In this document: in pieces, positions 2-40,631 of the stretch
How the letters are laid out: every line of letters starts with the position of its first letter
How positions within the stretch are numbered: position 1 is the stretch's first letter
Origin: Deltaproteobacteria bacterium
Lineage (GTDB): Bacteria > Desulfobacterota > B13-G15 > RBG-16-54-18
DNA: 64,000 bases
Reading direction: 5' to 3'
NCBI GenBank assembly: GCA_016927065.1
Contig: JAFGNJ010000020.1
Location: 10,923 to 74,922 of the forward strand
Notes under the pieces: generated by a model
What the model saw: the letters and a program-made list of their open reading frames with translations, nothing else
Told to the model about the DNA's origin: nothing
Databases searched by the model: none
Position numbers and translations under genes: made by a program

Positions 2-1372
2 GAGCGCATCCCTGAACGGGTGGTGCACGCCAAGGGGGCGGGGGCACACGGTTACTTTGAGGTCACCGCTGACGTCACAAAGTACACCAAGGCGAAGTTT
101 CTCTCCGAGGTCGGGAAACGCACCGAGGTATTTGCCCGGTTCTCTACTGTCGGCGGCGAAAAAGGATCGGCCGATGCCGAACGTGATCCGCGCGGATTTG
201 CGCTGAAGTTTTATACCGAGGAGGGCAATTACGACATGACGGGGAACAATACCCCTGTCTTCTTTATCCGGGACCCGCTGAAGTTCCCCGATTTCATTCA
301 CACACAGAAACGCAACCCCGGCACGAACCTGAAAGACGCAGACATGTTCTGGGATTTCCTCTCACTGACTCCGGAGTCGGTACATCAAGTGACGGTCCTC
401 TTTTCCGATCGCGGCACCCCGAGGACATACCGCCACATGAACGGCTACAGCAGCCACACGTACAAGTGGTACAACACGAAGGGGAATTATTTCTGGGTGC
501 AGTATCATTTTAAAACAGAGCAGGGCATCCAGAATCTCACCCTCGCGGAATCCACCAAGATGAAGGGCGAAGACCCCGACCATGCCACGCGGGATCTGTT
601 CCAGGCCATCGACCGGAAGGAATTCCCCTCTTGGCGGCTGGAAATGCAGATCATGACCCCTGAGCAGGCGGCGGACTATCGTTTTGATCCGTTCGATATC
701 ACCAAGGTCTGGTTCCACGCGGATGTTCCACCCATTACAATAGGCCGCATGGTGCTCGACCGTAACCCGGAAAACTACTTCGCCGAGGTCGAGCAAGCGG
801 CGTTCTCCCCGGCTAACTTTGTCCCCGGGATCGCTGCATCACCTGACAAGATGCTCCAGGGGCGCCTCTTTTCATACCACGACACCCATATCCATCGGTT
901 GGGGCCCAATTATCATCTCCTGCCCATCAACCGGCCAAAAGCAGCGCTGAATTACTATCAGCGTGACGGGTTTATGAATTTTAGCGACAACGGCGGAGAT
1001 AGCCCGAACTATTATCCCAACAGCTTCGGTGGCCCTGAACCCGACCCTGATGTCGGTGAACCGCCATTTGAGGTTTCCGGACAGGCGGCGCGTCATCCTT
1101 ATGCCCATCCCAACGACGACTTCTTCCAGGCCGGGGAACTCTATCGCCGGGTGATGACAGATGAGGATCGCGATCATCTTATTGGCAACATCACCTTACA
1201 CCTGGGTAACGCACAGAAACGCATTCAGTTGCGCCAGGCTGCCGTTTTCTATAAGGCTGATCCTGAGTATGGGAGTCGCGTTGCCGAAGGATTGAAGCTT
1301 GATACCAAAGAGGTGAAGCGCCTGGCGGAGATGTCTCAAGAGGATCGGGCCAAAGCAACCCAAGGAACGTGA
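2..1372 (+). CDS. Monofunctional heme catalase, 5'-truncated by the window edge. The reading frame is open from base 2.
   Basis: The translation carries catalase hallmarks ([30 protein letters not shown]-like start, and the heme distal/proximal regions). The ORF runs to the window start without a start codon. Confidence 0.9.
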
Positions 1373-1464
1373 TTGAACATGCAACAACGTTTTTGCGAGA
1401 CGATGGCTAACAAACTACACCAATAACTTGAAGCGCTAGATATAACCTAACAAGGGGGACGAGT

Positions 1465-1974
1465 ATGGACACGAAAATCTTTCGCAAGATCAGCTACGGC
1501 GTCTACATCGTGACTTCGAGAGATGAAGATCGCATCAACGGACAAACAGCCAATGCGGTGATGCAGGTGTGTTCAAGGCCATCTCTGGTCGCCATCGCCA
1601 TAAACAAGGAGAATCTCACCCATGAGTTCATAACAAAAAGCGGCGTATTTTGCGTCTCGATCCTCTCACAGGATGCCCCCCTGAATCTCATCGGGGGATT
1701 CGGATTCAAGTCAGGGAGAGAGGTGGACAAATTTGACGGCATTCCCTATCGTCTGGGAGCGAATGGCTGTCCCATTATTGCAGAGCACACCGTCGGCTAT
1801 CTAGAGGGAACGGTAACGGGAAAACTCGATGCAGGGACACACACCATCTTTCTGGGGGAGGTAACGGAAGGGAAGCTCCTTAATGACGGAGAGCCGATGA
1901 CCTATGCCTATTACCACCAGGTGAAGCGGGGGACCACACCCGAGACGGCCCCCACCTATATTAGAAAAGAATAA
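1465..1974 (+). CDS. Flavin reductase-like domain protein (FMN-binding split barrel), a possible rubredoxin reductase partner
   Basis: 169 aa with a flavin_reduct-like pattern (VYIVTSRDEDRINGQTANAVMQV...). It sits immediately upstream of the rubredoxin-ROO pair. Confidence 0.65.
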   Translation: MDTKIFRKISYGVYIVTSRDEDRINGQTANAVMQVCSRPSLVAIAINKENLTHEFITKSGVFCVSILSQDAPLNLIGGFGFKSGREVDKFDGIPYRLGANGCPIIAEHTVGYLEGTVTGKLDAGTHTIFLGEVTEGKLLNDGEPMTYAYYHQVKRGTTPETAPTYIRKE

Positions 1975-3655: not shown

Positions 3656-4576
3656 TTGAATACGCACGAGCTCATTATAGTAGGGGCAGGACCGGCAGGC
3701 ATAACCGCTGGGGTCTATGCCGCGCGGAAGCGCATGAAGGTTCTGATGATCGCCGTGGATGTCGGCGGGCAGGCATCGCTAAGCTGGGATGTCGAGAATT
3801 ACCTCGGTTACCAATTCATTACCGGCCCGGAACTTGCCCAGAAATTTAAGGAGCACCTTGATCATTTTGATGTGGAGTTGAGGGAGGGCGAGAAGGCGAC
3901 ATCAGTAGAAAAATCGGGTAACACCGTGAACATCACAACAGATAAGGGGGAATATGCCGCGCAGACGGTAATCGTTGCTTCGGGAAGGAGACCCAGGAAG
4001 CTCGGGGTAGAGGGTGAGGATGAATTTCAGAACAAAGGAATCACATACTGTGCGACCTGTGACGCCCCGCTGTTCGCAGACATGGATGTTGCCGTCATCG
4101 GTGGAGGTAATGCGGCCCTCGATGCCGCAATACAATTAACAAAAATTGCGAAAAAGATATACCTCTTAGAAGTAAAGCCCCAATTGACGGCAGACAGCGT
4201 AATGATAGAAAAGGCCAAGGAAAGCGGCAAGATAGTCTTTAACACCGACACAAAAGTGAAGAAGATCTACGGGGATAAGCTTGTTCAGGGCATAGAAATA
4301 GTCAAGGGTGATACGGTGGAAGATCTCTCTGTCGGCGGCATCTTTGTCGAGATAGGCTCAACACCCGTATCCGATTTCGTCCAAGGGGTAAAGAAAGATG
4401 AGAGGGGAGAAATAATAATCAATTGCAGCTGTGAAACCGATATCCCCGGGATCTTCGCTGCCGGTGATGTCACCAATGTCTTTGCCAAACAGATTATTGT
4501 GGCCTGTGGCGAGGGGGCAAAGGCAGCAATTGCAGCCTTTGATTATGTGAATCGAATGGGAGGAAAAGCAGCATGA
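3656..4576 (+). CDS. trxB: Thioredoxin-disulfide reductase-like FAD/NAD(P) oxidoreductase
   Basis: It has a GxGxxG motif at the N-terminus, a CATC redox-active motif (CATCDAPLF) and a second dinucleotide fold (VIGGGNAALD). A TTG start follows a GAAGGA ribosome-binding site. Confidence 0.7.
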   Translation: MNTHELIIVGAGPAGITAGVYAARKRMKVLMIAVDVGGQASLSWDVENYLGYQFITGPELAQKFKEHLDHFDVELREGEKATSVEKSGNTVNITTDKGEYAAQTVIVASGRRPRKLGVEGEDEFQNKGITYCATCDAPLFADMDVAVIGGGNAALDAAIQLTKIAKKIYLLEVKPQLTADSVMIEKAKESGKIVFNTDTKVKKIYGDKLVQGIEIVKGDTVEDLSVGGIFVEIGSTPVSDFVQGVKKDERGEIIINCSCETDIPGIFAAGDVTNVFAKQIIVACGEGAKAAIAAFDYVNRMGGKAA

Positions 4577-7615: not shown

Positions 7616-9706
7616 ATGAGTGCCGGGCAGCCTAACAAGCTTATATCCGAAAAGAGCCCCTATCTCCTCCAACATGCCCACAACCCCGTTGATTGGCATC
7701 CGTGGGGAACAGAGGCCTTTGAGCGAGCGCGAAAGGAGGACAAGCCCATCTTTCTCTCCATCGGCTACTCCACCTGCCACTGGTGCCACGTGATGGAAGA
7801 GGAGTCCTTTGAGGACCCCGAGGTCGCCCAGTTGATGAACCAGACCTTCGTCTCTATCAAGGTCGATAGAGAGGAGCGGCCCGACATAGACAATATCTAC
7901 ATGACCGTCTGCCAGATGATGACCGGCAGAGGGGGGTGGCCCATGACCATCATCATGACGGCGGATAAGAAGCCATTCTTTGCAACCACCTACATCCCCA
8001 AGGAGACCAGGTTCGGCCAAACAGGGATGAAGGAACTCATACCCGCCATCCGGGCGTTGTGGGAAGGGCGAAGGGAGGATCTGTTCACCTCAGCCGAGCA
8101 GATCGCCGGCGCCCTCAACCAGATAGCAAGCGAATCACCGAGCTCGCCGGGAGGAGAGCTGGGAGAGGGCGTTTTGAAGACGGCTTACGACCAACTCTCC
8201 CAAAATTTCGATACGCAACACGGGGGTTTTGGGACGGCGCCGAAGTTTCCCACGCCCCACACCCTGATGTTTCTGCTCCGATACTGGCGGCGCACCGGCG
8301 ATAAGCAGGCCTTAGAGATGGTGGAGAAGACCATCCAGGAGATGAGGCTGGGAGGCATCTACGACCACGTGGGGTTCGGCTTCCACCGCTACTCCACCGA
8401 CAGCCGGTGGTTCCTCCCCCACTTCGAAAAGATGCTCTATGACCAGGCCTTGCTCGCCATGGCCTACACCGAGGCCTATCAGGCAACCGCTGGCACGGAG
8501 GCATACGAACAAACGGCACGGGAGATCTTCTCTTATGTCCTGCGTGATATGATTGATTCGAAGGGAGGTTTTTACTCTGCCGAAGATGCGGACAGCGAGG
8601 GGGAGGAGGGCAAATTTTACCTCTGGACCCAAAAGGAGGTCAAAAGCATACTCTCTCCGGAAGAGGCACAATTGGTTATCTCCGTCTTCAATATTGAAAA
8701 GGAAGGGAATTTTGCGGAAGAGGCGACCGGGAGGAAGACCGGAGGTAATATTCTCTATTTGAAAAAGCTACTCCAGAAGATCGTCCCGGACGGTCTCGGT
8801 CAAACGTTAGAAGAAGCGCGGGCAAAGCTCTTCGACGCACGGGAGAAGCGCGGGCATCCCCATAAAGACGATAAGATCCTCACTGATTGGAATGGTCTGA
8901 TGATAGCGGCATTTGCCAAGGGGGCACAGGTATTTGCTGAACCCCGCTACGAAGAAGCCGCGAGGCGCGCAGCGGATTTTATCCTGGGCACCATGGTCGA
9001 CGCAAAGGGGCGGCTCTATCATCGCTATCGGGATGGTGATCCCGCAATAGCGGGATTTCTGGATGACTACGCCTTTTTGACCTGGGGGCTCATAGAGTTG
9101 TATGAAGCGACCTTCGCAACGAGCTATCTGGAAAGCGCCCTTGATCTCAACACCATGATGCTGCAACATTTCTGGGATGGGGAGCAGGGCGGATTCTATT
9201 TTACTGCGGACGACGCCGATACAATCTTGACACGAAAGAAGGAGGTCTACGACGGTGCCGTCCCCTCGGGAAACTCGGTAGCCATGCTCAATCTCCTGCG
9301 CCTGGCGCGCCTGACAGCCAACCCGGAGTTGGATGAGAAGGCTGCCCAGATCTCCCACGCATGTTCTCCCCTAGTCTCCCAATCGCCAGGTGCCTATACC
9401 CAATGGATGGTCGCCCTCGATTTTGCACGAGGACTCTCTTATGAAGTCGTCATCGTCGGCGATCCCCAGGCAGATGATACAACGGCCATGCTGAAGGTCC
9501 TCAGAAAGGCCTTTGTGCCGAATAAGGCGGCCATCTTACGCCCCACGAGTGAGGAAGACCCCGACATCACCCACTTGGCTGAATTTACCAAGGGTCTTTC
9601 CAGTCTCAATAACAAGGCCACGGCATATGTGTGCAGGAACTTTCGATGTGAGCTTCCCACAACGGAGCCACAGCAGATGTTGAGACTGTTGGAGGGAGAC
9701 GGATGA
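7616..9706 (+). CDS. Thioredoxin-domain protein of the YyaL/DUF255 family, with a C-terminal N-acylglucosamine-2-epimerase-like six-hairpin glycosidase fold
   Basis: 696 aa. The N-terminus ([34 protein letters not shown]) is characteristic of DUF255/YyaL. Confidence 0.8.
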
Positions 9707-10449
9707 AGTCACCAAAAGAAAAAATCGGCGAACGGTTCCAGCAAGAGACCAAATACGACCCGGAGAGGATGGATGGGCATACCCTCGACTGGAGCAGGCA
9801 GCCCAAGCCATTTAAGGATTATAAGGCCCCCCTCGCCATCGTCCCCCTCCCTGAGCCCGACCTCACCGGCGACCCCCATCTCTGGCAACTCCTCTATAGC
9901 CGCAGATCGAGGAGAGAATATGACGCGGGTCGATCCTTAACAACCGAAAAGCTCTCCGCACTCTTCTGGGCAGCGCAGGGTATCACGGCCAGATACGGAG
10001 AGGTCCTCTTCAGAACAGCGCCCTCTGCCGGTGGGCTCTATCCTGTGGAGACCTATCTCTTGGTGAGGATGGTCGAAGGGCTTGAGCAGGGTATTTATCA
10101 CTTCAGGCCCCAGGCCTTTGATCTCGAATTCCTGCAGAAGGGCGACCTTGCACGTGACCTGTCCGAGGCCGCCCTCGGACAGCAGCTGGTGATGGCGGCC
10201 CAGGTGACCTTTATCTGGACCGCGGTGGTGGAACGGTCCCGGTGGAAATACCGACAAAGGGCCTATCGGTACATCTACCTCGACGCGGGCCACATAGGGG
10301 AGAACCTCTACCTGGCTGCCGGCGCCCTCGGGCTGGGGTGCTGTGCTATCGGGGCCTTCTATGATGACAAGGTAAATACTATCATAGGGGTCGATGGGAT
10401 CGAAGAGGCGGCCATCTACATGGCTACGGTTGGGTGGCCGCAAGAATAA
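9703..10449 (+). CDS. SagB-type dehydrogenase / nitroreductase-superfamily protein
   Basis: A nitroreductase fold ([17 protein letters not shown]). It overlaps the preceding stop by 4 nt, consistent with an operon with the YyaL-like gene. Confidence 0.65.
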
Positions 10450-10615
10450 TCATGTCATGCATACTGGATATAACGTATAATTGTTGTTATTATAATGGTG
10501 TACGCCCCATGATTTCTTCGCCATCAACGAACATTGAAATTTCCTTCTTACCCCCCTTAGAAAAGGGGGGATGGGGGGATTTGAAATCTATTATATTTAA
10601 TAAAGGGAGGAAGAT

Positions 10616-11191
10616 ATGATGAAAAAAAGGGTGCTGTTATTCGTTGCTCTTGCCGTCTGCCTTGTTGCGCTTAATGGTGTACTTGTGGCCGCTGAGGAAT
10701 CGACGATCACTGGCACAGTCCTCGCGCCGATAAAACTTCCCGTTCCCCAAGATCCCACAGCCAAAAACTACCTGGGGCTTACCGAAGAAGGATCGTTCGC
10801 TCTATCGCAGATCAAGGCCCAGGTGGTTATGATTGAAATCTTCAATATGTACTGCAACAACTGTCAGCGGGAGGCACCACGCGTAAATGAGCTCTATCAA
10901 CTGATGAACAAGGATCCAAAGCTAAAGGGGAAGATCAAAATGATAGGAATCGGTGTAGGGAATACCCCCCTTGAGGTCGAGGTATTCAAGAAGACCTACA
11001 AGGTCGCCTTTCCCCTTTTCCCCGACGCGGATTATGCCATCCACAAGATATGCGGCGAGGTGAGGACACCGTATTTCATCGGCGTAAAGATCAAGACAGA
11101 CGGGTCACTCAGAGTTTTTTATACCAAAGAGGGTGGTTTCCAAGACCCCGCCCAATTTCTAAAAATAATAGTTGCTTTATCAGGACTCTAA
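10616..11191 (+). CDS. Secreted thioredoxin-fold (TlpA/ResA-like) thiol-disulfide oxidoreductase
   Basis: It has a signal peptide (MMKKRVLLFVALAVCLVALNG) and a CxxC motif (YCNNCQ) in a redoxin-like context. Confidence 0.5.
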   Translation: MMKKRVLLFVALAVCLVALNGVLVAAEESTITGTVLAPIKLPVPQDPTAKNYLGLTEEGSFALSQIKAQVVMIEIFNMYCNNCQREAPRVNELYQLMNKDPKLKGKIKMIGIGVGNTPLEVEVFKKTYKVAFPLFPDADYAIHKICGEVRTPYFIGVKIKTDGSLRVFYTKEGGFQDPAQFLKIIVALSGL

Positions 11192-11204
11192 GGAGGGCTA
11201 CATC

Positions 11205-11813
11205 ATGCTGCAGAGAAAAAGAATCTATGGCGAACTTGCCATAGGCGCCATTGCCGCCATGTGCTTGGTAACGATGGCCTACGGGGGTTCAGCTACGTTA
11301 AAGGAGAATGTCTACGATGTAGGGGCACTGAAACCTATCGACAGTGTACCCAAGCTCCAGGTCGGAGACAAGGCCCCGGAATTCACCCTCCCCGCGGTCT
11401 CCGGGAAAACGGTGGCACTCGCCCAGTACCGAGACACAAAGAATGTGGTCATCTCATTTGTCCCGGCGGCCTGGACGCCGGTCTGTTCGGAACAGTGGCC
11501 GGGCTACAACATCGCCAAGCCCATCTTTGACCAATATGACGCACAATTGATCGGGATCACCGTGGACAACGTCCCCACGCTCTACGCGTGGACCCATCAG
11601 ATGGGGGGGCTGTGGTTTCCTGCCCTCTCCGACTTTTGGCCCCATGGGGCGGTGGCGGATCAGTACGGTATCTTGCGCTCCGATGGAACATCGGAGCGCG
11701 CCCTCTTCGTCATCGACAAACAGGGGATCATCCGGTACATCGATGTGCACGACATCAACAAAAGGCCGCCTCTCGATGACCTCGTCAGAGAGTTGGAGGA
11801 GCTAAAGAAATAG
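11205..11813 (+). CDS. Peroxiredoxin (AhpC/TSA family) with an N-terminal hydrophobic segment, probably periplasmic
   Basis: It has the FVPAAWTPVCSEQ peroxidatic-Cys motif. The start was moved from 11172 to ATG 11205, which follows an AGGAGG ribosome-binding site. Confidence 0.8.
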   Translation: MLQRKRIYGELAIGAIAAMCLVTMAYGGSATLKENVYDVGALKPIDSVPKLQVGDKAPEFTLPAVSGKTVALAQYRDTKNVVISFVPAAWTPVCSEQWPGYNIAKPIFDQYDAQLIGITVDNVPTLYAWTHQMGGLWFPALSDFWPHGAVADQYGILRSDGTSERALFVIDKQGIIRYIDVHDINKRPPLDDLVRELEELKK

Positions 11814-12035
11814 GATTCTTGTATCGGTGTGCAATGTACGTAATCAGATTTACTAAAATAGTTAATCTGATTATATTATATTAATTCTAGTAACGATAGA
11901 GATAACCTGCATGTGAACAACGAAGCTGTTACATGTCTGCTTCATTGACTTGTTAGGTCCGCCACTAAGTAACAAAAAAGAATCCTATAATCTTATGGAC
12001 GTTTCTTGCCTTGCCCCTTTGGAGATAAATTGAAG

Positions 12036-12602
12036 TTAAACTTTTTCTTTATAATCATCAAATAATGTTGTTACGATGGAGTCTGTTGTTTCTATAAAAT
12101 ATTTTATGCCAAGATTCTTGATTGTTTCATCATCTTCATATCCACATACTGTAGCAAAGGTTAACCCGACTAATTCATTTAAATTATCCTTCAGCTTTTC
12201 AGGTCTAGCATTTCTTAATATTGCAACATACATATCTCTTCGGTTGTTTTGATAATCAATGATTTCCTGAGCTTTGGTTTCGCCTAACTTATGTGTTGCT
12301 AATCCGTGTCTGTGCACCATAACTCTTTCGCTAATAATTTTGTAATCATCATTGATTCCAAAAAATATATAAAGTCCCCATTCAATAGCAAACAAAAGTA
12401 AGCCGCTTAATTCCCACGAAATTCTTTTCTTATCATAGTTCTCTGATAATGATTTATTACAGTCGAATTGTTCTAGTCTATTGGATATGTTTGTTATGAA
12501 AAGCTCTGCGTAATTATCAGGAGTTGGAGTGATCTTTTTCTTCTTCTTGAGTCTTGATAATAATCTCATGAAATATAGCCTTTTAAAAATCAAATATACC
12601 AA
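12036..12602 (-). CDS. Hypothetical membrane-associated protein in low-GC island 1
   Basis: A 188-aa ORF in a roughly 35% GC segment with one predicted TM helix (LSGLLLFAIEWGLYIFFGI). No recognisable family. Confidence 0.4.
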   Translation of the reverse strand: MVYLIFKRLYFMRLLSRLKKKKKITPTPDNYAELFITNISNRLEQFDCNKSLSENYDKKRISWELSGLLLFAIEWGLYIFFGINDDYKIISERVMVHRHGLATHKLGETKAQEIIDYQNNRRDMYVAILRNARPEKLKDNLNELVGLTFATVCGYEDDETIKNLGIKYFIETTDSIVTTLFDDYKEKV

Positions 12603-12795
12603 TATTTCTAAGCACTTACTTTGCGCCGTATGGATTTGGGTATTATTTTACTATTCCTTTCTATGATTGAGCGTGTCAAAAATTACATCGTAATTTATCT
12701 GATCAAAGGTGAAGCCCATTTTTGATCCTATTCACTCCCCAATGACCAAGTCTGAGCTGCGCCCGTCAAGGTCTTCAGGAGAATAAAACGGCGCG

Positions 12796-12822
12796 GTCTG
12801 GCTTCGGCTCCAGGCTTTTTTT
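12796..12822 (+). terminator. Orphan intrinsic-terminator-like hairpin on the plus strand (GUCUGG-8nt-CCAGGC followed by a run of 7 T)
   Basis: A stem-loop plus T-run was read directly from the sequence. There is no plus-strand gene upstream, so it may mark a small unannotated transcript. Confidence 0.3.
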
Positions 12823-12860
12823 GGGCCTTCTTTATCTACCTCTACTATTTAGATAAACCG

Positions 12861-13751
12861 TTAATCGGAACTATCGACAGTGTTAGCAGCGAAACCCCAG
12901 CCAAATCGTATATACTGGCCAAGCGGTTCCCCGATACCCGAAGTATTTGTGTCTCGGATTCCAACGGTAAGTCGCCCGGGCAGAAACATTCCGATAACGA
13001 GGCACATAAAGTCTTGTATAAACTCAAGGCAGTTAGTATAAATTGTTTGCATATACTTCAGAACATCTATTCCCGCAATTCTGGGTACGGTTATTTGCCA
13101 CTGATCAGAGTTTCTCTCGGCCTGATAACTGTACCCGGCTATCGTTTTGAAGTGGTTCAAAGAAGTTCTAAGCGTAATAGCTTGTTTGAGCCATGCTTTT
13201 TGATCATCTCTTATCAACGAAATGATTGAGTCAACTATTTCTGTTTTGGGGTTTTTATCTCCTTTAAACTTCTCAAGACCTTTGATTAGATTCTCGCCCA
13301 TGTCACCAAATGTCTTAGTTTTGAATCTTTTTGGGAAAAGCGCCTCAAGAAATTTTACTGCAAGGTCAAGCGCACTCTTCATCTGGAACATAAAAGCTTC
13401 AAGCTCGAATAGTAGCTCATAAGCTTGCAACGAAATGTGACCATCTGGTCGACACTGTGCCTTCATCTGGCCGATACAAAGTTGCTCATGCTGTTCATAC
13501 CCCTTTAAATGATACTGCATAGCGGAAATCTTGATCATTACATTGAGCAATACAGCAATGAACTTGTCGTGCTCTTTGACTTTAGGATTAAAAAAGTCAA
13601 AGCCGTCGCTGAGCAGCAGCTCTTTGGCTTGATAGTAGAGGCGGCCCATGATCTCGAGATCGAATGGCATCTTTGATAATGCATCAAATTCGGTTTTTCC
13701 GATCTTATCCATTCTTGATCCTATATTGTGGCCCAACAATATTCTAACCAA
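12861..13751 (-). CDS. Hypothetical all-alpha protein in low-GC island 1, with a possible HEPN-like R-x4-H motif (RTSLNH)
   Basis: A 296-aa ORF, AT-rich, with no known domain recognised by eye. The R-x4-H motif is near a predicted C-terminal helix. Confidence 0.4.
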   Translation of the reverse strand: MVRILLGHNIGSRMDKIGKTEFDALSKMPFDLEIMGRLYYQAKELLLSDGFDFFNPKVKEHDKFIAVLLNVMIKISAMQYHLKGYEQHEQLCIGQMKAQCRPDGHISLQAYELLFELEAFMFQMKSALDLAVKFLEALFPKRFKTKTFGDMGENLIKGLEKFKGDKNPKTEIVDSIISLIRDDQKAWLKQAITLRTSLNHFKTIAGYSYQAERNSDQWQITVPRIAGIDVLKYMQTIYTNCLEFIQDFMCLVIGMFLPGRLTVGIRDTNTSGIGEPLGQYIRFGWGFAANTVDSSD

Positions 13752-13914
13752 ATAAACAAATAATTCCAGAAGGAAAATCTGCTTGGCTGCCGTAATTAGT
13801 CCATAATATCATATTATACAGAACCCGTATATCATAGGCAGGAACTTATAGGGGAGAGGCACAAAAAGGTTCAGGCCTTAAAAGATGGCTCAAGCCTACT
13901 AGCCTCTCCCCGCT

Positions 13915-16900
13915 TTACTGGGGCTTCCCCATGTGTACGAGGACCCGATGTTTGATAAAGTCCCGATCCAGTGGGATCACCCTATCCCGTACACGCCGAC
14001 CGTCCAGCTCCACCCACGCAACGCCCCGCTCATAGCCTTCCGGGTTCTCGACCCTGATCTCGTATATCGCTTCGCCGTGACGATAGCGCAGGCTGAAACC
14101 CTCCCACCAGCCGGGGATGACCGGATTTACCTGCATGCGATCCCCCCGCACCTGCAAGCCCAGGATCTCTTCAACCCAGGCTCGGTACATCCACGCAGAG
14201 GCACCCGTATACCACGACCAACCACCGTGACCGATCCTCCCGGGCAATCGGTATACATCAGCCGCGATCACGTAGGGCTCGATCCCGTAGCGCCAGACTG
14301 TTTCCGGATCACGCGCCCGCTCGATCGGGTTAAGCATGCGCATCATTTTCACCGCACGCTCACCATCCCCTCGACGCGCCATGGCCATGGCGAACCACAG
14401 GGCGGCGTGAGTGTACTGGCCTCCGTTCTCGCGCACCCCCGGCGGGTACCCCTTGATGTAGCCGGGTGACGGCTCCGATTTGTCGAAAGGAGGTTCGAGG
14501 AGCAGCACGAGACCTTCATCCTCGCGAACGAGATGTCTCCATGCCGATTCCAAGGCACTCTTTGCACGATCCGTGTCGGCGGCGCCGCTCAGCCACGCCC
14601 AGGATTGGGGCAGGGAATCGATCTTCGCCTCTTCATTCGCCGAAGAGCCAAGCGGCGTGCCATCGTCGAAGATCGCCCGCAGATACCATTCCCCATCCCA
14701 GGCTTTTTGTTCGACAAGCTTAATCAGCGCCTTCCGTTTTTGCTGATAGGTCTTACGCAGATCCGGCCGATCCAGGAGGTCAGCCATCTCGACCATGCCC
14801 TGCAGCACATCCGCCAGGAACCACGCCAGCCACACGCTCTCCCCTTTGCCCCCGGCACCCACAAGGTTCATCCCATCGTTCCAGTCTCCCGTTCCCATCA
14901 GGGGCAACCCGGTGGGCCCAACAGTCAGCCCGCGCGAGACCGCTCGCTCGCAGTGCTCAAACAGCGTACCGCGTTCCCGCGCGATCTCCGGTGTGGAGAG
15001 GGCTTCTCGCTGATCTGCTTCCAACAGAGGAGCGTTGAGGAAGGGAACCGTCGTATGCAGGATGCCCACATCACCGGTGATCCTGATGTAGTGAGCGACG
15101 ACGTAGGGAAGCCATAGGGGATCATCGGAGATCCGCGAGCGGATACCTGCGCCGTTCGGTGGATGCCACCAGTGCTGGACATCGCCTTCCTTGAACTGGC
15201 GGCTCGCCGCAAACAGGATGTGCTCTCGCGCCAGGTCGGGATACGCGTAGACGAAAGCCATGACGTCCTGCAATTGATCGCGGAAGCCGAACGCGCCGCC
15301 GGGCTGGTAAAAGGCGGAACGCCCCCAGATCCGGCAGCTCAGACTTTGGTACAGCAACCAGCGGTTGATGAGGAAGTCCGCTGCGAGCTCGGGGGTATGG
15401 ACTTCGATCGTGCCCAACAGGTCATCCCACCAGGCTTTCATTTTGCTTAGAGAGGTTTCGAACGCCGAGCTTTTCCGGTAGGTTTGAACCAGCTTATGGA
15501 CCTCCTCCGCTGATCCGGCCTGGCCCACCATGCACGTAATCTCAACCTTCTCACCGGGAGCCAGTTCGACCCTGACCTGCAGCGCGGCACAGGGGTCCAA
15601 TCCCGCTCCCGTCCGCAGTGAAAGCCTGATCCGCTCCATCGCCACGGGGTTCGCCATCGAGCGATTGCGCCCCAGGAAGGATGTGCGGTCGCCGTTGTAT
15701 GACTCCACAGGCGGGCTGATGGCCGCGAAGGCCACACGATCCCCATACTCGGGGTGGTAACGATTTCTGGCAAGCAGGGCCTGCGCTTCGTCATCCCAGG
15801 TGGTCACGACGTGCATCTGAGAAGACTCACGGTTCTCCCCCAGTGTCCACTCTACGTAATACGTAACAGACAGTTTGCGATGCCGAGCGGAGTCGTTTCT
15901 CAGCCGCAGCCGCTGCAGTTTGATCGGCTCTCCCCCTTGCTCGTCTACGGGAACGAAGACCAAGAGCTCCTGCTCGATCCCATTGCTATTATGCTCGAAT
16001 GCCGTGTACCCTGCCCCGTGCCGTGTCCGATAGGGGGTCTTTTCGCGGATCGGCGTCGGGGTCGGTGTCCAGTAGACACCGCTCTCCTCATCCCGAATGT
16101 ACAACGCCTCAGACGGTGGATCCATCACGGAGTCGTTCGACCATGGCGTCAGGCGATTGCGCTGGCTGTTGCCATACCAGGTAAAGCCGGCCCCTGTTTC
16201 GCTGAGTACTGTTCCGAAAGTCGGGTTGGCGATGACGTTTACCCAGGGCGCGGGCGTGTGGGTGTCTGGTCCGAAATAGATTGCGTATTCACGCCCGTCC
16301 GGGGTAAACCCACCCAGGCTATTGAAGTAGGGTAATTCCAGGAAGGGCAGCGCAGGCGAAGGCTCCCGGGGGGCACGCTTCTTGACCATGGGTTCCGGCA
16401 TCTCGGGAGCCTCCGCAGGCATACCCAATTGCTGGGGCAATGTGCCGCGGGCCGCCACCAACTCCACACTCGCCGCTGCCCTGAGCAGCGTCAGATCTTC
16501 CTCAGGCATAAGATCAGCGCTACGCACGTAGACACCACCAGACTGATCGATCCCCGCGTGCATCGCATGCGTCTGGATGAGGTGCTCGAGTCGTTCGCGC
16601 AGGGGCTGTTCATAACCGCTCGCTTCCTCATTGAGGATCACTAAGTCTGCCATTAATCCGTGATTATGCCAATAGGCATGCGCCTGGAGCATTTGACGAA
16701 CCAGGGTGATGTCCTGCGCTTCACCGATGGTGACCAGGGCGATCGGCACGTCGCCCGAGATTCCGTAGGGCCACAATCCGGCTTGGCCCTTGCAATTCTT
16801 TTCGATGCATTCAATGGGAGGCCGCAGGCTGGGATTGGGAAACAGCAAGTGGCTTGTCAGCTGCTGGAAGCGGCGGGCCTCGTCGGGCTGGATACGAAGC

Positions 16901-19900
16901 AGCCGCAACTCGAGTTGGGCGGAGGCCCAGGCGACATCCATCGCCCGATCGATCGGAGGGAGTTCTCCGTACTTGTCCATCAGTCTCAAGACCTGCTGGC
17001 GTGTTTCGCCGGCGGCGATAACTAGGGAAACCTGGATGCGCCGGCCCGGACCGAGAGTCACGCTCCGCCGCAGGCTGAGGATCGGGTCGAGAACAAAACC
17101 CTGGTTGCTACCGAGCTCTTGAAAGACACCCATGGGACTGGCGAGCGTCCTCCCGCGTCCGATGAACCGCCGCCGGTCGGTATCGAACTGCAAGGCGTTA
17201 TCCTCGACTTGTTCGAGCGTGAAGCGGTGCGCAATATAGATGGGCGGGTCGTCATCTCCGCGAGGCCTGCGGCACGCGAGAAGCGCCTGATATTCGGGCA
17301 CCGCTTCGGTCTGGATGAACAGCTTGTTAAAGGCCGGATGCTGCCGGTCAGCGTTGTGCGGCGCCATTGAGAGTTCGACGTAGCTTGTGAGCTCGAGGCG
17401 GCGGGTGCGAACGGACCGGTTGATCAGAGTGATCCGCCGGATCTCAACGTCATCTTCCGGCGAGACGATGACCTCGGTTTCGGTTTGAATGCCGCTATCG
17501 GTGCGTCGGAACACGGCACGATCGAGCGCAAAGTTGGCGGAATACGCCTCGACCTTCCCGCCGGTTGGATGATACGTATTGGACCACAAACGATCCGAAT
17601 CGGCTTCATGGATATAGCAGAAGGTTCCCCACGGATCCCGCGTCCGATCAGATCTCCAGCGGGTAATCTCATAGTCTCTCCACCGGCTGTACCCGCCGCC
17701 GGCGTTCGTGAGCATCAGGTTATAGCTACCATTACTCAGCAGTTGGGTTTTGGGTGTAGCGGTGTGTGGCGTATCGAATTTGCTCACTGACGGCACCACT
17801 TCGCCGACGTCCGTCACCGAAGGCGCCCTCTCACGGGTGGTGATGTGGTGGAGCGGAGGAAGGACAGGGATGCGTTCATGGAGCAATGGCTCGACCGCAC
17901 GCACGCGTGCGTCGGCATGAAAACGGCGTTGGATGATATTACCATGGATGAAGTTGGTCAGCGACAGAAAACTCATTCCTTGATGATTAGTCATATACGC
18001 TCGTACCATCACCCCGCGCTCGCCCGGGCGGCCCGGCTGCCGGCTGAAGTCCATCGCTTCGTAATAGCCGTAATCGTTCAAAAGCCCCAACTTAGCTAAG
18101 CGTTTCAGATTCTGCACGGTCTCTCTCGGTGCTATATTCACCGCCAGAAGAGTAGCATAGGGTGCTACGACAACCTCCTCCAAGCCGCGTTTTAATCCGA
18201 GCTCCGGCACACCGAACGCCTTGTATTGATACGTCTTGTTGATGTCCAGGTCTCCAAAGGCGGACTCCGAGATCCCCCACGGCACATGGAGCTTGCGACC
18301 GTAGGCGATGTGGATCGCCACAGCTTCCCGTGTTGCTTTATCCAGGAGTGAATTCCAGTACGTTTTTTGTAAAATGAGCGGCATGAGATATTCGAACATG
18401 CTTCCTGTCCAGCTGAGCAGCACCCGGTGCCGGCCGATCGCGCCGTAGGGCCGGCTCATTGAGAACCAATGCTCAGCGGAGACGTCACCGCGCGCAATGG
18501 CGACAAAACTCCCAAGCCGCGCCTCACTCGCCAGGAGATCGTAATAGGCGCTATCCAAGCGCCCGTCGGAAACATTGTAGCCGACGGAGAACAACCGGCG
18601 TTCGGAGTCATACAGGAAGGGCATGTTGATCGATTCGGACAGTTCGCGTCCATCCTGGACCAGGCGCTCGCCCAAAGCAAGCATTTCACCCGCCAACCAT
18701 TGCGCCTTTGCAAAGGCCTGCAGAAGGCGGCTAATCCACTCGAAGAGGGGGCCTGTTTCCGAGGGAGAAAAGTCCCGAATCGATTGCAGGGTCTGTATAC
18801 AGCCTATATGCCCTTTGGCGAGATCGCGAAGCGACGGCGCGTGATACAGATTCTCGCGCAACGCGAGCACGGCCTCCCTGCCCAGCAAGGCGATCTCATC
18901 TTCCGCTTTTTCATCAATGATTTCGATCCAGGCGAGGTAGCGATCCACAATCTCGCGCCAGGCCAATACCTGTTTCTCCATCTGCCCGGCCCAATAGGCC
19001 GCACGCGATTCACCTCCGGTTTCACCGTCTGTTTCACCTCGGGTTCCCCCTCCGGGTTCCCCAGAGGGTCCGCCGGAGGCGGACTTACGTTTCTTACGGT
19101 AAAGACCTTTTATGCTGTCTTCTAGTTGCCGCAGCAGGCGCAGCGCATCGGCGATGCGATCCGGTGGATTTTCACAACTACGCATCAGTTCGTCAAGGCG
19201 GCGGGCATTGAGAGCGGAAACGCCTTCCTCTTCGACGACCTGCTTCAAGATTTCACCGGTGTCCCGCAGACCTGCAAAGGCTTTCGCATCCAGCATGGGG
19301 TCTTGCATCAAGTCGTCAAGACCTTGCTCCAGGGCCCAGAGGGCGCCAAGCAGGTTTCCACTGTCCACCATGGATACGTAGCGAGGTTCGAGAGGGGTCA
19401 GGGTTTTAATATCGTACCAATTCAACAGATGACCCTCATAGCGCTCGAGTTTGCCGATCGTCTCCATAGTACGCGTCAACTTTTCGATGGCCTGATCCAT
19501 CGTCAGATATCCGAAATCATGGGCGGCGAGCGCGCTGACCATCCAGAAACCGATGTTGGTTGGACTGGTACGCATCGCTAGTTGATTCTTATGGGAGAAC
19601 TGGTAATTGTCCGGCGGAAGCCAAGAGGTGTTTTCTCCGACAAAATCAGAGAAATACCGCCAGGTTCGTCGTGCAACCTTTCTCAGGAACCGCACATCCT
19701 TTTCGGGAAACAGTAATCGCTGTGACCTCGCGTGCGGTCTGAGGGTCAAGAGCCAACCGATCAGAGGGGATAAGAACCACAATACGAGCCAGGGACCGGC
19801 CAGGAAAATGTTCGACGGCATCCAGCGCTGCACCGCCCAACCCATGATCACGCTGAAGATGCTCGCTAGGCCCAGCAACATCACGAACGTCTGCACTCGA

Positions 19901-22900
19901 TCCGGGGCATTTCCATGCATCACCTGGGTTGACGTCCACTCGAGCAACCCTCGATGAGAGATAAGACGACGATACCAGACCCGCAGAATGGCATCCATCG
20001 CCAGCCAGGCCTGGCGCGGAAGCAGTGCAGCTTCGACAATCGCCCGCAGCAGGTCGTGCGCCAATCGTAAGAAGGAAAAGCCCCGTGGCCCCTGGCCGGT
20101 GGTCGCCCATATGAAGGGCTGAACTAAGGGGTGAAAGAGCAGCTGCATGGCGACCACAACGGCAGATATCCACACCATCTCAGAGGAAGTCAGCCAGGAC
20201 GCTATCAGTAAGCCCAGACTGGTCGCAGGTACCAGGCTACGGCGCAAGTTGTCGAAGACCTTCCAGCGGTCGAACCAGGAGAGCGGGTTTGGTCCTCGGC
20301 CTCCTCCGGGCAGGGGAACGCGCGGCAAAATCCAATCCGCAATTTGCCAATCACCGCGAATCCAACGATGCTGCCGGCTGGTGTAGCTCATGTAATCCTG
20401 CGGGAACTCATCATAGAGCTCGATATCACTGGCGAGGCCCACGCGAACATGAGCACCTTCGATCAAATCATGACTGAGCAATTGCTCTTCGGGAAACGTG
20501 CCGGAAAGCACTCGACTGAAGACACGCACGTCATAGATGCCTTTGCCATGATAGGAGCCTTCGCCAGTGAGATCCTGATTGACGTCGGAAACAGCCTTGG
20601 TATAGGGGTCGATTCCGATTGGGTCCGAGAAGAGCCGGCTGAATGGCGTGGCGCTCGTACTCGGCAGGGAGGGGCTCACGCGCGGTTGGATGATCGCATA
20701 GGAGCCGGCCAGGATGCCACCTTTGTCATCGAAGCGCGGCAGGTTGAGCGGGTGGGCCAGGGTTTCAACCATCCTGCGGGCGGTGTCGTGCGGTAGCTGC
20801 GTGTCGCTGTCCAACGTGATGACAAATCTCACATCGGACAGGCGATCCGGGTCGCCGACGTACACCAACCGATTGGCATCTTCAGGCCGCGTTCCATCAA
20901 TCAGACGATTGAGTTCTTCCAGTTTCCCGCGTTTACGCTCCCACCCGATAAATTTCTGTTCGGATTCACTCCATTTTCGCTCTCGATGGAAAAGGGAAAA
21001 ACGTTCGCCGCCATACCGGTTATTGAGGGCTTCGATGCTTTCGATCGTCGCTTGGAGCAGGTGTTCGTCCTCCTCGCCATGCGCTTGCTTTGAATCCGCA
21101 TAATCCGAGAAGAGGCCAAAGAATACATTGTTTTCTTTGTTAGTGAGATATCTGAGCTCGAGCTTTTCCGCCTCGGCCCGGATAGTCTCCGCATCAACCA
21201 ACAGCATGGGCACAACGACGAGCGTTCGAAATTCATCAGGAATCCCCGAGTCCTCGAAATTCATCTTCGGAAGCGTGCGCGGCGGAAGTAACTGCGTGAC
21301 CAGGTAATTCACAACCTCGAGCGAAAGCTGGCTAATCGGAATCAGCAAAAGAAGCGCTAGCAAAAGCCGGATCACGGGTGTCTGCCCGCGCATACCAAGC
21401 AAAACGATCAGGGAGATGAATACCGCGGTAAAAAAGCCGAGCCCAAGAAAGTACACTGCAGCATGATGGCGGTAGACCCATTGCACAACGCGGAACCGGG
21501 GCGCCTCGCGACATCGTATGAGCTGCGCCAGCTCGTGTCTTCCTTCTCCAACCAGATATGTCCCGACATGGATACGCCGTTCATCCTTCACCCCTTTATG
21601 GGCCGCGCGCGTCGCTAGGTCAATGGCGCGCTGGGCGACTCGTTCTTCCGCCTGGCCTGACCTGCGGGCGAGTTCTTCAATCGTCCTACGATACCGATCT
21701 CGCGTGTCGAAATCCATCCGGGGATAGACTCCCGAAGGGTCCATCCGAAGCAACTGCTCCACTCGACTGATCTGTTCGAATATCTTCCTCCAATCCAACA
21801 GGGCGAGTTGTCGCAAACTGGTGAACGCATTCCCGATCGATATCTGATCCTTCATCTGGCGGTTTTGCTCACGAAGGTTGAGATCGCCCAGGGATTTTCG
21901 AAACATACGCTCGAGCCATGCCTTGACCGGCACCAGCGCGGCTTCTTGATCGTAGAGGTTATCGATCAGTTGAAGACTGAAATAGGGACTCGGCTTGGGT
22001 TGCGATTCGGCAAGTTCGGCAAGGATCGAAAGGATTGAGAAAGGCTGGTTGGGGTCTCGCCGATTGGCCGTAATGAGCCTGTTTGCCCAGAAGTCGGCAA
22101 TCTCACGTTCTCGCAGCTCTGTCAGGGCTCTTTCGGCGAGATACAAGAGGCCCTCGACCAATGCCGCGCGCAGCATCTGGGGGACGGCCCAGAGTTCGCC
22201 AATCGACAATGGGCCGACTGATTGATAGGCCTTGATGAACGCGAGGATGTTCTCCCTATCCAGACGCAAGTCCGCATGTGAGACCAGTTCCCGTGCGAGG
22301 CCGTAGATGCGCGGCAGACCACGGTAGGGCCCGCTGGCCAGTGCCGGCAGCTCCTGGTAATAGCGCCGGGGAAGGTTCAACTGCACTTCGCGCACGTTAC
22401 TCTCGATGATGTACTCATTGTCGAGGAGCCACTCGGTGGTTGGAGGCGTACTCTGACCCAGTCGACTCGCTTCGGACAGATCCAGGCAAACACGATGGAT
22501 CCATCGCCGGGTTTGTTCGAGCCACTTGAGCAGTTTGATGTTCCGCCGGGGATTCGTGCTCACCTGATGGTCCTTGGCGAGGCGCTCAGCATACTCCTGG
22601 ATCTGTACCCCAGAGAGCGGACTCTCGAGGCTCGCCGCCTCTCCGATGAAATCCTCTCGCTTCGGATGCAGAAAAAATATGGCGGGCGGGATCTCGTCGC
22701 TTTCCTGCAACACTGCCATGGGGGAGCGCAATGTTTCGATCGGTGCCCGGAGAATCAGGACGGTCTCCTCGGATACCAACCAGCGCGCATGATCCTCGAG
22801 CAGCCTTCGTTCGACGCCGAACCTCGATCGTCGTATCCATGCCACACTGAAGAAGATTCCGGCGATCCCACCCGCAAGGCCCGGAATCAGGGTAGACAGG

Positions 22901-23157
22901 CTTCCAAACGGAATCGGCACCGACCACTGAAGGCTCATAGCGGCAGCCCCAGCGATGAAGCCGCAGAGGAAGAAACCCGCGGCCACTCCAAAGGCCCGGA
23001 GCCGCAGGAAGGGATCTCGAGTTTGGATATGTCCATCCGCTGTCTTGCTCATCAAGGCAACGCGCCGGAAACCCCTCCGCTGCAACCCCTTGAGGGCCCT
23101 GCGAGCCGCATCCTGTTTTGCGAAGTAGCCTATGAGAATGCCTGCTCTCACGTCCAT
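13915..23157 (-). CDS. ndvB: Cyclic beta-1,2-glucan synthase-like giant protein (GT84 glycosyltransferase region plus GH94 glycoside phosphorylase region), 3080 aa
   Basis: A GT2-like core ([19 protein letters not shown]) is flanked by TM segments. The C-terminal half has GH94 signatures ([33 protein letters not shown]). Confidence 0.75.
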   Translation of the reverse strand: [3080 protein letters not shown]

Positions 23158-25202: not shown

Positions 25203-26441
25203 ATGACCCTATTCTACATATTTGCATGCCTGGTGTTTTTGGGGATTGTTGTTATTGCGCTACAAAACCTCGCCATACGATCCTCCATCCCAAAAAATCA
25301 GATCATACCGGAATCTGATTTTTTGGCCGGGGAAATGACATGGAGGAAAAATATATCCCCAAAACAGTCTTTGAACGGATTCTCTCCCCCTACATCGATC
25401 CTGAAACCCCTCAAGGGATTGGATGATGACCTCTTTGATAACCTCGTGAGTTTCTGCAACCAAGATTACGCAGAGCATGAGATTATATTCGCCCTTGAAG
25501 ACAAGAATGACCCTGCTCTAAAATTGGCGCAAAAAATAAAAAAGCAGCACCCCCACCAAAAAATCTCCATTATCGTAAAACAAAAAGATCGCGCCTTGAA
25601 TCCGAAAGTCAACAACATGTTCTCCGCCTATAGGATCTCTCAATTTCCATACGTCCTTATCAGCGATAGTGATGTCAGAGTAGACAAAGACTACCTTATG
25701 ACGATAGGTCAATACATGGAAGATCCCCACGTTGGGCTTGTGTGTAATCTCATTCGAGGCATTGGAAGTCGTACCATCGGTTCTCTGTTTGAAAATCTCC
25801 ATCTCAATTCTTTTGTGATCGGAAATATTGCAATTCTCTCCCGGTTTATCAAGATGCCCGTCGTCGTCGGGAAATCCATGCTGATGAGGAAAGAGGCCCT
25901 TGAAGAAATCGGGGGATTTGAGGCGGTGCAGAACGTCCTTGCCGAGGACTATGTGATGGGTGATTTGATGCATAGAAGGGGGAAAAAGGTCATCACCTCT
26001 GGTCATATAATCAATGCGGTGAATCACAATAGAACGATGATGCAATTCCTCAAAAGACACGCCAGGTGGGGGAAAATGCGGTTTAAACTTGGAGGTATAG
26101 GATACGTTTCCGAAATACTCAGCAACACCGTGTTTATAGCATGCCTCTCACTCGCCGTAGTGGGGCCAACCACAGGCACGATTTTTTTAACCTCTACAGC
26201 CTCGCTCGCAACAATAATCGGGAATTACTGCTTGGGAAAAAGGATTGGATCAGCCCATCGCTTCTATCATTATCTGTTATCACCCCTCAAGGATATCATT
26301 ATAGGCGTTATCTGGTTTTTCCCATTCTTCAGTCGGACAGTGATGTGGAGAAAACACAAATATAAAATTGCGCAAGGCTCGGTCCTCATCCCACTTCATG
26401 CTAAGGGCGTTCAACAAGAAAGTCCATTAAAAAACTTGTAA
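25203..26441 (+). CDS. Ceramide-glucosyltransferase-like GT2/GT21 family membrane glycosyltransferase
   Basis: An N-terminal TM segment is followed by a GT-A fold with D..D motifs (LISDSDVRVD) and a Q/RxxRW-like motif (RHARWGKMRF). Confidence 0.6.
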   Translation: MTLFYIFACLVFLGIVVIALQNLAIRSSIPKNQIIPESDFLAGEMTWRKNISPKQSLNGFSPPTSILKPLKGLDDDLFDNLVSFCNQDYAEHEIIFALEDKNDPALKLAQKIKKQHPHQKISIIVKQKDRALNPKVNNMFSAYRISQFPYVLISDSDVRVDKDYLMTIGQYMEDPHVGLVCNLIRGIGSRTIGSLFENLHLNSFVIGNIAILSRFIKMPVVVGKSMLMRKEALEEIGGFEAVQNVLAEDYVMGDLMHRRGKKVITSGHIINAVNHNRTMMQFLKRHARWGKMRFKLGGIGYVSEILSNTVFIACLSLAVVGPTTGTIFLTSTASLATIIGNYCLGKRIGSAHRFYHYLLSPLKDIIIGVIWFFPFFSRTVMWRKHKYKIAQGSVLIPLHAKGVQQESPLKNL

Positions 26442-36815: not shown

Positions 36816-37181
36816 ATGACTAGACCTTCTCATAAGGAAATACACGGAAAGATAAGGAAAGCAAGAGAGTTAGTATCAGATGGTTATTTTGCTGTAATAG
36901 AACCAGACAGTATTGCTGCTGATGCATTAGAGTTAGGCTATTTAATAGAGGACCTTCCAAATATTCCTTCTGAGATTTTAATTGAAGTAAAAGCCGAAAA
37001 TTATGTCGGCGATCAACCTCCACAGCGTTCCTATGAGAAACAAATTATAGATTGTGAGCTCTTTGCATTTAGATGGGCAAGCAAACGATTTGGTTGTGAA
37101 ATCTATGTAAAGTTTACACTCAAGGATAACACAATGTGGCTTGTGTCCTTGCATGAACATAGGGAGAAGGAGGATGAATAA
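36816..37181 (+). CDS. mqsR: MqsR-like toxin (predicted ribosome-independent mRNA interferase, RelE/MqsR fold)
   Basis: A 121-aa protein whose pattern matches E. coli MqsR as recalled from memory (KARELVSDGYFAV..ADALELGY ... YVKFTLKDNTMWLVSLHEHREK versus MqsR ...ALLNADELGLDF ... YLKITVIHDVLIVSFKEK). It is in a low-GC island, and its stop overlaps the antitoxin start. Confidence 0.55.
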   Translation: MTRPSHKEIHGKIRKARELVSDGYFAVIEPDSIAADALELGYLIEDLPNIPSEILIEVKAENYVGDQPPQRSYEKQIIDCELFAFRWASKRFGCEIYVKFTLKDNTMWLVSLHEHREKEDE

Positions 37182-40504: not shown

Positions 40505-40631
40505 ACTTTCATGCAAGGGATGGTTCCACAGTTAGCCAGATGTTACCCTCTTTGATAAAGAGGGTAACAATTGAGGGGGATAATACAGCAAGGCAAATTT
40601 ACCCGACAATCAGTGGTTAAGCAGAAAATTT

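Follow-up and report, generated by a model that had tools for sequence, protein, structure and literature searches.

A low-GC island between peroxiredoxin and glucan-synthase-like genes as a probable integrase-less array of two integron-type cassettes, one encoding a putative solo HEPN effector

What are the two genes of a low-GC island in a Deltaproteobacteria contig, and how did they come to lie there? The island occupies positions 11814–13914 of a 64,000-nucleotide stretch of contig JAFGNJ010000020.1 (the whole stretch is hereafter the window), between a peroxiredoxin (Prx) gene and a giant glucan-synthase-like gene. The original prediction had taken it for a horizontally acquired two-gene defense or addiction module, and had missed what is likely to be the mechanism of acquisition, namely integron cassettes. 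On balance, we favor the reading that the island is an integrase-less array of two integron-type cassettes, in which gene A would encode a latent solo HEPN ribonuclease (RNase) effector and gene B would be an unrelated cassette.

The guanine-plus-cytosine (GC) content of 11814–13914 is 0.381, versus 0.535 in the left flank (9700–11813) and 0.610 in the right flank (13915–16015). The sharp drop that had been noticed is real, and this is the lowest-GC 2.1-kb stretch of the window: among 1238 sliding windows (mean 0.516, sd 0.052), two were equally low and both overlapped the island. The two co-oriented minus-strand open reading frames (ORFs) of the island span 12861..13751 (296 aa from a TTG) and 12036..12602 (188 aa from a TTG). 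Gene callers used internal ATG starts on near-identical metagenome contigs, which places gene A at 12861..13712 (minus strand, 283 aa, start at 13712) and gene B at 12036..12569 (minus strand, 177 aa, start at 12569). GC at third codon positions (GC3) is 0.45 for gene A and 0.28 for gene B versus 0.68–0.75 for native neighbor genes, hence the two genes depart from native usage and also differ from one another. Flanking direct repeats of insertion sequence (IS) or prophage type were searched for and not found, and tRNA and Rfam scans of the window gave no matches.

Related genomes carry different cargo at the same place. Eighty loci came out of a Prx-protein scan of metagenome contigs; several of them keep the gene order of the window: nitroreductase, thioredoxin-like, Prx, then the convergent giant glucan-synthase-like gene. 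The latter, a 3080-aa ORF at 13915–23157 (minus strand) that was named giant glucan synthase in the original prediction, serves here as a synteny anchor only; its C-terminal 500 aa are 83–89% identical in loci L019 and L022. The space after Prx holds a Rieske gene and a DUF7716 gene in L019, a syntenic relative, and a GDT1 transporter gene of native GC in L022. In L014, whose Prx is 95% identical, an MGMT gene directly follows the same flank, and in L015 a 448-aa gene of no known function does so. Nucleotide homology of the window to L014 and L015 stops on the left at 11910 and 11895, respectively, and homology to L019 and L022 restarts on the right at 13922. The variable cargo region thus spans 11895..13921 (GC 0.385; cargo on the minus strand), with the conserved Prx flank on one side and the glucan-synthase-like stop on the other. 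The island is therefore variable cargo at a conserved junction and, as the original prediction had held, foreign.

The left edge of this junction is sharp. Just after the Prx stop, on the host side and outside the cargo, lies a conserved hairpin with 15-nt arms and a 3-nt loop (11841..11873; folding z = -2.45 and -2.24), and its motif is common to L014, L015, L019, L094, and L095. The window and L014, L015, and L019 all diverge at one flank base (...TAGTAA|C, or G|TT when the cassette strand is read). In each of these three relatives, the cargo has an attC-like palindrome of its own at this end, with two stems and a bulged base, directly against that flank base.

We also noted a duplication beside this flank. 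In L019, L094, and L095, a Rieske [2Fe-2S] gene directly follows Prx, and then the final ~39 nt of Prx recur, together with the flank hairpin, as a degenerate second copy (7047–7154 in L019, the tails of L094 and L095; the corresponding Prx end and flank of the window is at 11775–11882). In the window, where the Rieske gene is missing, the 3' end of Prx seems to have been joined to the second Prx-end copy. This suggests that recombination between the two copies removed, or conversely inserted, the Rieske segment.

Homologues of both genes occur elsewhere as cassettes: gene B in L004, L105, and L106, and A-family genes in L003, L007, L010, and L011. An integron cassette is expected to have, after its ORF, an attC site 57–141 nt in length, with inverse cores (RYYYAAC ... 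GTTRRRY) and an imperfect palindrome. Textbook sites (7-nt inverse cores, two-stem hairpin, bulged base, 57–128 nt) lie exactly between ORFs in L003, L015, L019, L105, and L106. The A homologue in L003 stands between two canonical sites, 9911–9979 (GGCTAAC..GTTGGGC) and 10891–10987 (GCCCAAC..GTTGTGC), with more attC sites after the next gene. In L007 and L010, looser attC-like sites come after the A homologue; in L011 and L005, they come before it. L106 has sites at 127–254 (GTCCAAC..GTTGGGC) and 794–899 (GTCCAAC..GTTAGGC), the second of which ends exactly where homology to the gene B segment of the window begins.

Against these canonical sites, three attC-like sites could be identified by homology in the window, all on the minus strand and within 1.9 kb. 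The site of the B cassette (11888..11958) has a canonical R'' (ACCTAAC, 11958..11952) and a non-canonical R' (GTTACTA, 11894..11888). In L105, a canonical attC of 57 nt (GTCTAAC..GTTAGAG) comes after B; the window site shows homology to it, with 67 matched positions, and the G|TT of the window R' is the very point where conservation with the other relatives begins. The site of the A cassette, in the spacer between A and B (12744..12826), appears decayed, with R'' GCCCAAA (12826..12820) and CTTGGTC (12750..12744). Its 5' half can be matched to the attC that comes after the L007 A homologue (AAGGCCCAAC...), and its 3' half (CGCAGCTCAG) to the canonical L106 attC that ends at the start of B. The third is a canonical R' core, GTTGGGC (13731..13737), which lies 18 nt upstream of the A ATG and marks the start of the A cassette; the matching R'' is degenerate. 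This core is near-identical to, and in the same relative position as, the ATTGGGT that ends an attC in L005 (ATTTAAC..ATTGGGT), and the sequence from core to ATG is homologous to that upstream of the A homologue there.

A hairpin at 12795–12828 had originally been read as an orphan terminator between the two genes. The hairpin exists, but the segment folds no better than shuffled sequence (z = +0.55 and -0.02 for the two strands), and the region holds two terminator-like sites where shuffles predict 1.8; we therefore rejected a terminator. It lies inside the A-B spacer site, and the best reading makes it one portion of a decayed attC recombination site.

Clusters of attC sites that lack integron-integrases (CALINs) are defined as at least two attC sites on a single strand, spaced by under 4 kb, without an integron integrase (PMC4889954). 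By these definitions the window array would be CALIN-like. Several observations weigh against such a reading. All three window sites fail the strict RYYYAAC/GTTRRRY scan (the spacer site because of its non-canonical cores), having been recognized by position and homology; judged from their sequences, two of the three are decayed or non-canonical, and may or may not still work. A heuristic attC scan of the whole window gave 21 matches, mostly inside coding regions; the scan thus lacks specificity and lends nothing to the case for the window sites, and in several loci its matches occurred at about the shuffle rate. When nine hand-picked attC sites were aligned by MAFFT, their L-box pairs fell in different registers, and a covariance model was deemed unreliable. 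Furthermore, no intI was detected in the window by tblastn with an approximate IntI1 sequence and the IntI of L045 as queries (nothing below E = 0.25).

An integron integrase is present near Prx in a more distant relative, L045 (Prx 71% identical), at 912–1682 (minus strand), convergent to Prx and 116 nt away. This protein is 47% identical to IntI1 and has the integron-specific insertion. Since the alignment covers 256 residues including that insertion, the call is robust to small errors in the IntI1 query. Another point against is that this integrase, as oriented, would direct a classical divergent array away from Prx, so that its link to the window array is uncertain. C-terminal IntI fragments were also found in L077 (1773–1901, minus strand, next to transposase-like ORFs) and L087 (6433–6561, minus strand). 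The integrase beside B in L004 is not, in our judgment, an integron integrase, since the IntI-specific insertion is missing and an IS91/Y2 transposase accompanies it. Cassette insertion at a secondary G|TT site (attG insertion) has been described (bioRxiv 10.1101/2022.09.11.507474); either such an insertion or loss of intI would explain an array without an integrase.

The same weaknesses would suit a generic recombination or defense-island hotspot in which integrons play no part, the palindromes being terminators or repetitive extragenic palindromic (REP)-like elements and the AAC/GTT ends coincidental. We consider this explanation unlikely: it has to set the non-canonical window sites, the lack of intI in the window, and the shuffle-rate scans against textbook attC architecture exactly between ORFs in five loci, conservation that breaks exactly at G|TT, a single orientation for all cargo, and a true IntI beside Prx in L045.

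Do A and B nevertheless act together? The original prediction had treated them as one module, with B as the candidate partner. Gene B is an orphan: five close homologues were found (80–96% identical), and it had no Pfam, PADLOC, or NCBIfam match and one weak PHROGs match, to a function-unknown entry (E = 0.012). It was not found in the viral-contig and plasmid searches, and its dN/dS is about 0.5, from few substitutions. An AlphaFold2 (AF2) model of B is of low confidence (pLDDT 64), and Foldseek of this model against PDB gave no match below E = 0.2. The poly-Lys run that had been noted is present (KKKKK, N-terminal), as is a single hydrophobic helix, residues 54–72 (Kyte-Doolittle 19-residue mean 1.84). 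This stretch contains an invariant Glu, so the transmembrane (TM) helix that had been called there is possible only. Gene B matched neither NTP_transf_2 nor Polbeta, so it is no nucleotidyltransferase, which disposes of the suggestion that it might supply such a partner, and it belongs to no known antitoxin family.

Gene B, together with about 180 nt upstream and about 70 nt downstream, forms a discrete block (11966..12747/12761, minus strand) that moves as a separate 0.8-kb unit. The block is 95% identical to L004 3284–4066, 94% to L106 877–1678, and 88% to L105 197–929. It contains a promoter-like consensus match of its own (TTGACA-18-AATAGT, 12679..12650, minus strand). In L004, B follows a non-HEPN 150-aa gene near the IS91/Y2 transposase and an accessory tyrosine recombinase; in L106 it follows an HEPN_AbiU2 gene; and in L105 it precedes a 324-aa protein with an RNDAVGH motif.

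Some side observations concern these loci. The L105 B homologue is frameshifted in the A-rich tract that codes for the poly-Lys run (about 265–300); a sequencing error would account for this, as would a pseudogene or slippage-prone phase variation. In L004, a tandem 12-nt repeat (GAACAGTCGGAT, about four copies, 4068–4115) directly follows the B block, followed by two ACATAGGTAACAA repeats. Cassettes that neighbor B and A homologues also carry HEPN-type motifs, namely L105 945–1874 (the 324-aa RNDAVGH protein) and L003 11009–11467 (152 aa, RNQVAH). On the Marinobacter nauticus VT8 plasmid NC_008738.1, a 'hypothetical protein' is 34.5% identical to the 324-aa one.

A two-gene toxin-antitoxin or defense operon, with A as an HEPN toxin and B as antitoxin, immunity, or sensor partner, is in our estimate improbable. 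In its favor, A and B are adjacent and co-oriented, and the pair recurs at about 96% identity in the seven contigs L094–L100, of which only L094 and L095 extend far enough to show B following A. These contigs all come from Joint Genome Institute (JGI) metagenome samples, though, and probably represent one population. B also adjoins HEPN-motif genes in three of its four contexts (the window, the HEPN_AbiU2 gene of L106, and the RNDAVGH protein of L105). This adjacency, which counts against our treating B as an unrelated cassette, could reflect a functional link instead of chance co-residence in arrays. Less likely, B might be a recurrent accessory of HEPN cassettes that modulates or immunizes against them. 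It is simpler to suppose that toxin and defense cassettes are abundant in arrays and that B landed beside them, given that canonical attC sites separate B from its HEPN neighbors in L105 and L106. Gene B was found in 0/13 loci with an A-family gene, and its block, with sharp boundaries and its own promoter-like site, occurs in unrelated contexts; the A-B pair is thus not a conserved module. In L004, B follows a non-HEPN gene; in L003, two attC sites enclose the A homologue by itself; and the GC3 values of A and B are unlike.

Turning to gene A, clustering at 90% leaves about 100 homologues, and clustering at 50% gives 471 representatives (E ≤ 0.001). P0072 bears the NCBI name 'Cthe-2314-like HEPN domain-containing protein'; every other member is unnamed or 'hypothetical', and the family has no Pfam assignment. 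The motif R182-T-S-L-N-H187, an R-x4-H that had been noticed in the window protein (codons at 13152..13169, minus strand), is conserved among relatives, so the refuting condition set in the original prediction (a motif not conserved) fails: of the full-length relatives, 198/198 have the R and 197/198 the H. R-D-x3-H is the family consensus; the window copy has R-T, and HEPN motifs are expected to have a polar N, D, or H after R. Also near-invariant in the 198 relatives are K61, H68, Q110, K112, S113, L115, D116, G139, W174, and P210. D116 is present in 197/198 and K120 in 160/198 (plus six with R).

The AF2 model of A (pLDDT 81, pTM 0.83) begins with a long helix (45–86) and a helix (98–125) that carries ELEAFxFQxKSxLD and D116-x3-K120. 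An insert with a short helix (137–149) leads to a helix (157–188) that ends in R-x4-H, and a beta-hairpin (195–208) and a helix (217–243) follow. The protein, described earlier as all-helical, is mostly so, with short beta elements in the model; the HEPN-like core would span roughly residues 45–245. The HEPN superfamily is characterized by R-x4-6-H where helix 3 ends and by an acidic-x3-basic motif in helix 2; H2-H3 inserts are frequent, and in Csx1 a beta-hairpin follows the motif (PMC3710099). In the ApeA HEPN domain, active-site residues are in H3 and insertions lie between H3 and H4 (bioRxiv 10.64898/2026.01.26.701840). In the model of A, R-x4-H is at the C-terminal end of core helix 3, before the H3-H4 connector, where an HEPN active site should be, and D116-x3-K120 fits the conserved acidic residue of HEPN helix 2, typically E-x3-[KR]. 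The modeled layout thus matches both descriptions.

In profile searches of 106 diverse A members, HEPN_Apea (13 matches, best 6e-4) and HEPN_Cthe2314 (5 matches, best 2.5e-5) were the sole recurrent Pfam family matches to the protein body, all of them sub-threshold or borderline. The PADLOC candidate PDC-M22A was matched by 10/31 family members (best 5e-5; window protein E = 6e-4). In 10/106 distant members (P0102, P0103, P0105, P0238, and others), an N-terminal SEC-C zinc-binding motif is fused to the HEPN-like body. Other results tell against an HEPN assignment. The window protein had no significant Pfam, NCBIfam, or PDB sequence match and no Pfam match at E ≤ 1. Foldseek of its model against PDB and viral models (BFVD) gave nothing below E = 0.2, with two HEPN structures appearing only at E = 1.6–2.4. 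PDB sequence searches with the family profiles A1 and A3 gave nothing relevant, and a PHROGs scan no significant family. An hhalign comparison of the family with single AbiU2-type and RNDAVGH proteins gave nothing, which is to be expected between HEPN families. Taking motif conservation, AF2 model, and sub-threshold matches together, A likely belongs to the HEPN superfamily.

The genomic surroundings of A homologues are of a conflict type, in keeping with the proposed defense setting. The homologues are sporadic in metagenome-assembled genomes of several phyla, with the family scattered among Acidobacteriota, Planctomycetota, Bdellovibrionales, Desulfobacteraceae, and Omnitrophota, and their GC is below that of their surroundings in 5/5 loci tested. 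We found no conserved neighbor across the loci compared. Defense or toxin neighbors were present in nine independent loci; among them are PDC-S31/DUF2971 (L007), a PD-Lambda-2_B-like HTH-M78 protein (L009), an Eco57I-type methylase and TumE (L001), HepT/MNT, Fic, and a transposase (L101), and a caspase-like peptidase, QueC-DpnII/MboI-NTD, and a DNA methylase (L103 and L104). In two unrelated genomes, TIR-domain proteins are directly beside distant A-family genes (L010, 6916–7740; L102, 7517–7984 and 4877–6346); the gap is 17 nt in L102, and an attC-like site lies between the two genes in L010. On the other side of the ledger, A-family genes were not found in the viral contigs or plasmids searched. 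A would represent an undescribed HEPN-like family of solo proteins and a probable RNase toxin or defense protein.

Might A have an HEPN fold and yet not be a nuclease, serving instead as a nucleotide- or ligand-binding or regulatory subunit, or might its R/H pair perform some other chemistry? Some HEPN families are non-catalytic (PMC3710099), A has unusually many invariant polar residues beyond R/H (K61, H68, Q110, K112, S113, and D116), and its fold has no confirming structural match. We nevertheless give this explanation little credence. HEPN families that have lost R-x4-6-H are predicted to be substrate-binding, not catalytic (PMC3710099), yet the motif is invariant in about 200 divergent A relatives, and the conflict-type contexts likewise speak against a non-nuclease. 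Lastly, the notion that A and B are native low-expression genes of incidentally low GC, which might appeal to other patches of 41–45% GC in the window, is effectively refuted by the alternative occupancy of the site, both genes being absent from it in the closest relatives, and is at odds with the below-host GC and scattered distribution of A homologues.

If the cassette-array reading is correct, the array would sit in the intergenic space between the Prx and giant glucan-synthase-like genes, at a junction that holds other cassettes in related genomes. The first cassette would supply A as a stand-alone member of its HEPN-superfamily family. By analogy with other HEPN proteins, A would most likely dimerize to form a composite R-x4-H active site and cleave RNA. 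It would be a latent single-protein toxin or abortive-infection effector, inactive until triggered, with no neighboring antitoxin to neutralize it. The second cassette would supply B, a small helical protein with a possible membrane anchor and no tie to A beyond a place in the same array. More tentatively, and in our estimate less likely than not, the whole A family (about 470 clusters at 50% identity) could be a minimal, 280-aa single-protein abortive-infection RNase, mainly integron-cassette-borne across phyla and infection-triggered like ApeA.

Other features of the region lie outside the two cassettes. Upstream of the A cassette is a promoter-like site (13808..13835, minus strand) with an exact TATAAT at 13817..13812, which matches the consensus at 9/12 positions. 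A strong hairpin with a 10-bp GC-rich outer stem (13851..13911, minus strand; -29.7 kcal/mol, z = -2.79) directly follows the glucan-synthase stop and is probably the terminator of that gene; it is not common to L019 or L022. Elsewhere in the window, further low-GC patches (GC 0.37–0.45, GC3 down to 0.29) occur at 25203–26441, 37141–37998, and 40004–41174, and at about 56000–57000 and about 59000–60000. These may be acquired genes; heuristic attC matches in them fell inside ORFs and were judged not credible.

Should A prove to be an active solo HEPN RNase, a compact uncharacterized family would be added to the single-gene defense effectors, and environmental chromosomal arrays beyond Vibrio and clinical integrons would be seen to stock such effectors. 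Independently of A's activity, one chromosomal junction bears different cassettes in related strains (MGMT, DUF7716, the 448-aa protein, HEPN-like A, and B), which makes it useful for studying cassette turnover and attC decay.

How does the locus compare with known systems? As a small HEPN toxin with an R-x4-H motif, HepT of HepT/MntA resembles A. Unlike HepT, A has no adjacent MNT gene or conserved ORF partner and is twice the size, and B is no nucleotidyltransferase. PADLOC PDC-M22 (gene A model PDLC04520) resembles A weakly, from the R-x4-H region through the hairpin and helix behind it, but it is a multi-gene candidate and B matches no PADLOC model; a literature search found no paper on its function. 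Closer to A are the Cthe_2314-like and ApeA-like HEPN families (PF18730, PF18739; PMC3710099), with which it has in common a helix 3 ending in an invariant R-x4-H, an acidic-x3-basic motif in helix 2, H2/H3 and H3/H4 inserts, and the lack of a fixed partner gene; the gene contexts of Cthe_2314 are listed as 'none detected' (PMC3710099). The A family differs by invariants of its own (K61, H68, the ELEAFxFQxKSxLD motif, W174, and P210), and all its matches to these families are below Pfam thresholds.

ApeA is likewise a solo HEPN protein without an antitoxin and has HEPN insertions around H3 and H4 (bioRxiv 10.64898/2026.01.26.701840). It offers a plausible model for A as a latent tRNA or RNA nuclease switched on during infection. 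We rejected the idea that A is itself ApeA. ApeA is about 580 aa long, with N-terminal and Mid domains that form a ligand pocket and doughnut-shaped oligomers, and a C-terminal HEPN_ApeA domain (bioRxiv 10.64898/2026.01.26.701840), whereas A has 283 aa, with only about 45 extra N-terminal residues, and no significant sequence or fold match to ApeA.

As for the array, its single-ORF co-oriented units, with attC-like imperfect palindromes and recurrence in other arrays, resemble integron cassettes, CALINs, and single attC sites lacking integron-integrases (SALINs) (PMC4889954). Like a CALIN, the array has no integrase nearby, two cassettes (the commonest CALIN size), and a host junction at G|TT; it differs in that two of its three sites are decayed or non-canonical. 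To judge from the metagenome sources, its host also seems to be an uncultured bacterium of sediments, unlike the integron hosts that have been studied well. There is precedent for its content in an 'Integron cassette HEPN' (PMC3710099; PDB 3JRT), although A has no sequence match to any PDB chain including 3JRT, and in integron-borne defense genes (bioRxiv 10.1101/2024.07.02.601719; PMC12614218). HEPN toxins, integron-borne defense genes, and CALINs are thus established already, and the locus is no new kind of system; what is new here is a HEPN-like family, probably carried in a small integrase-less cassette array.

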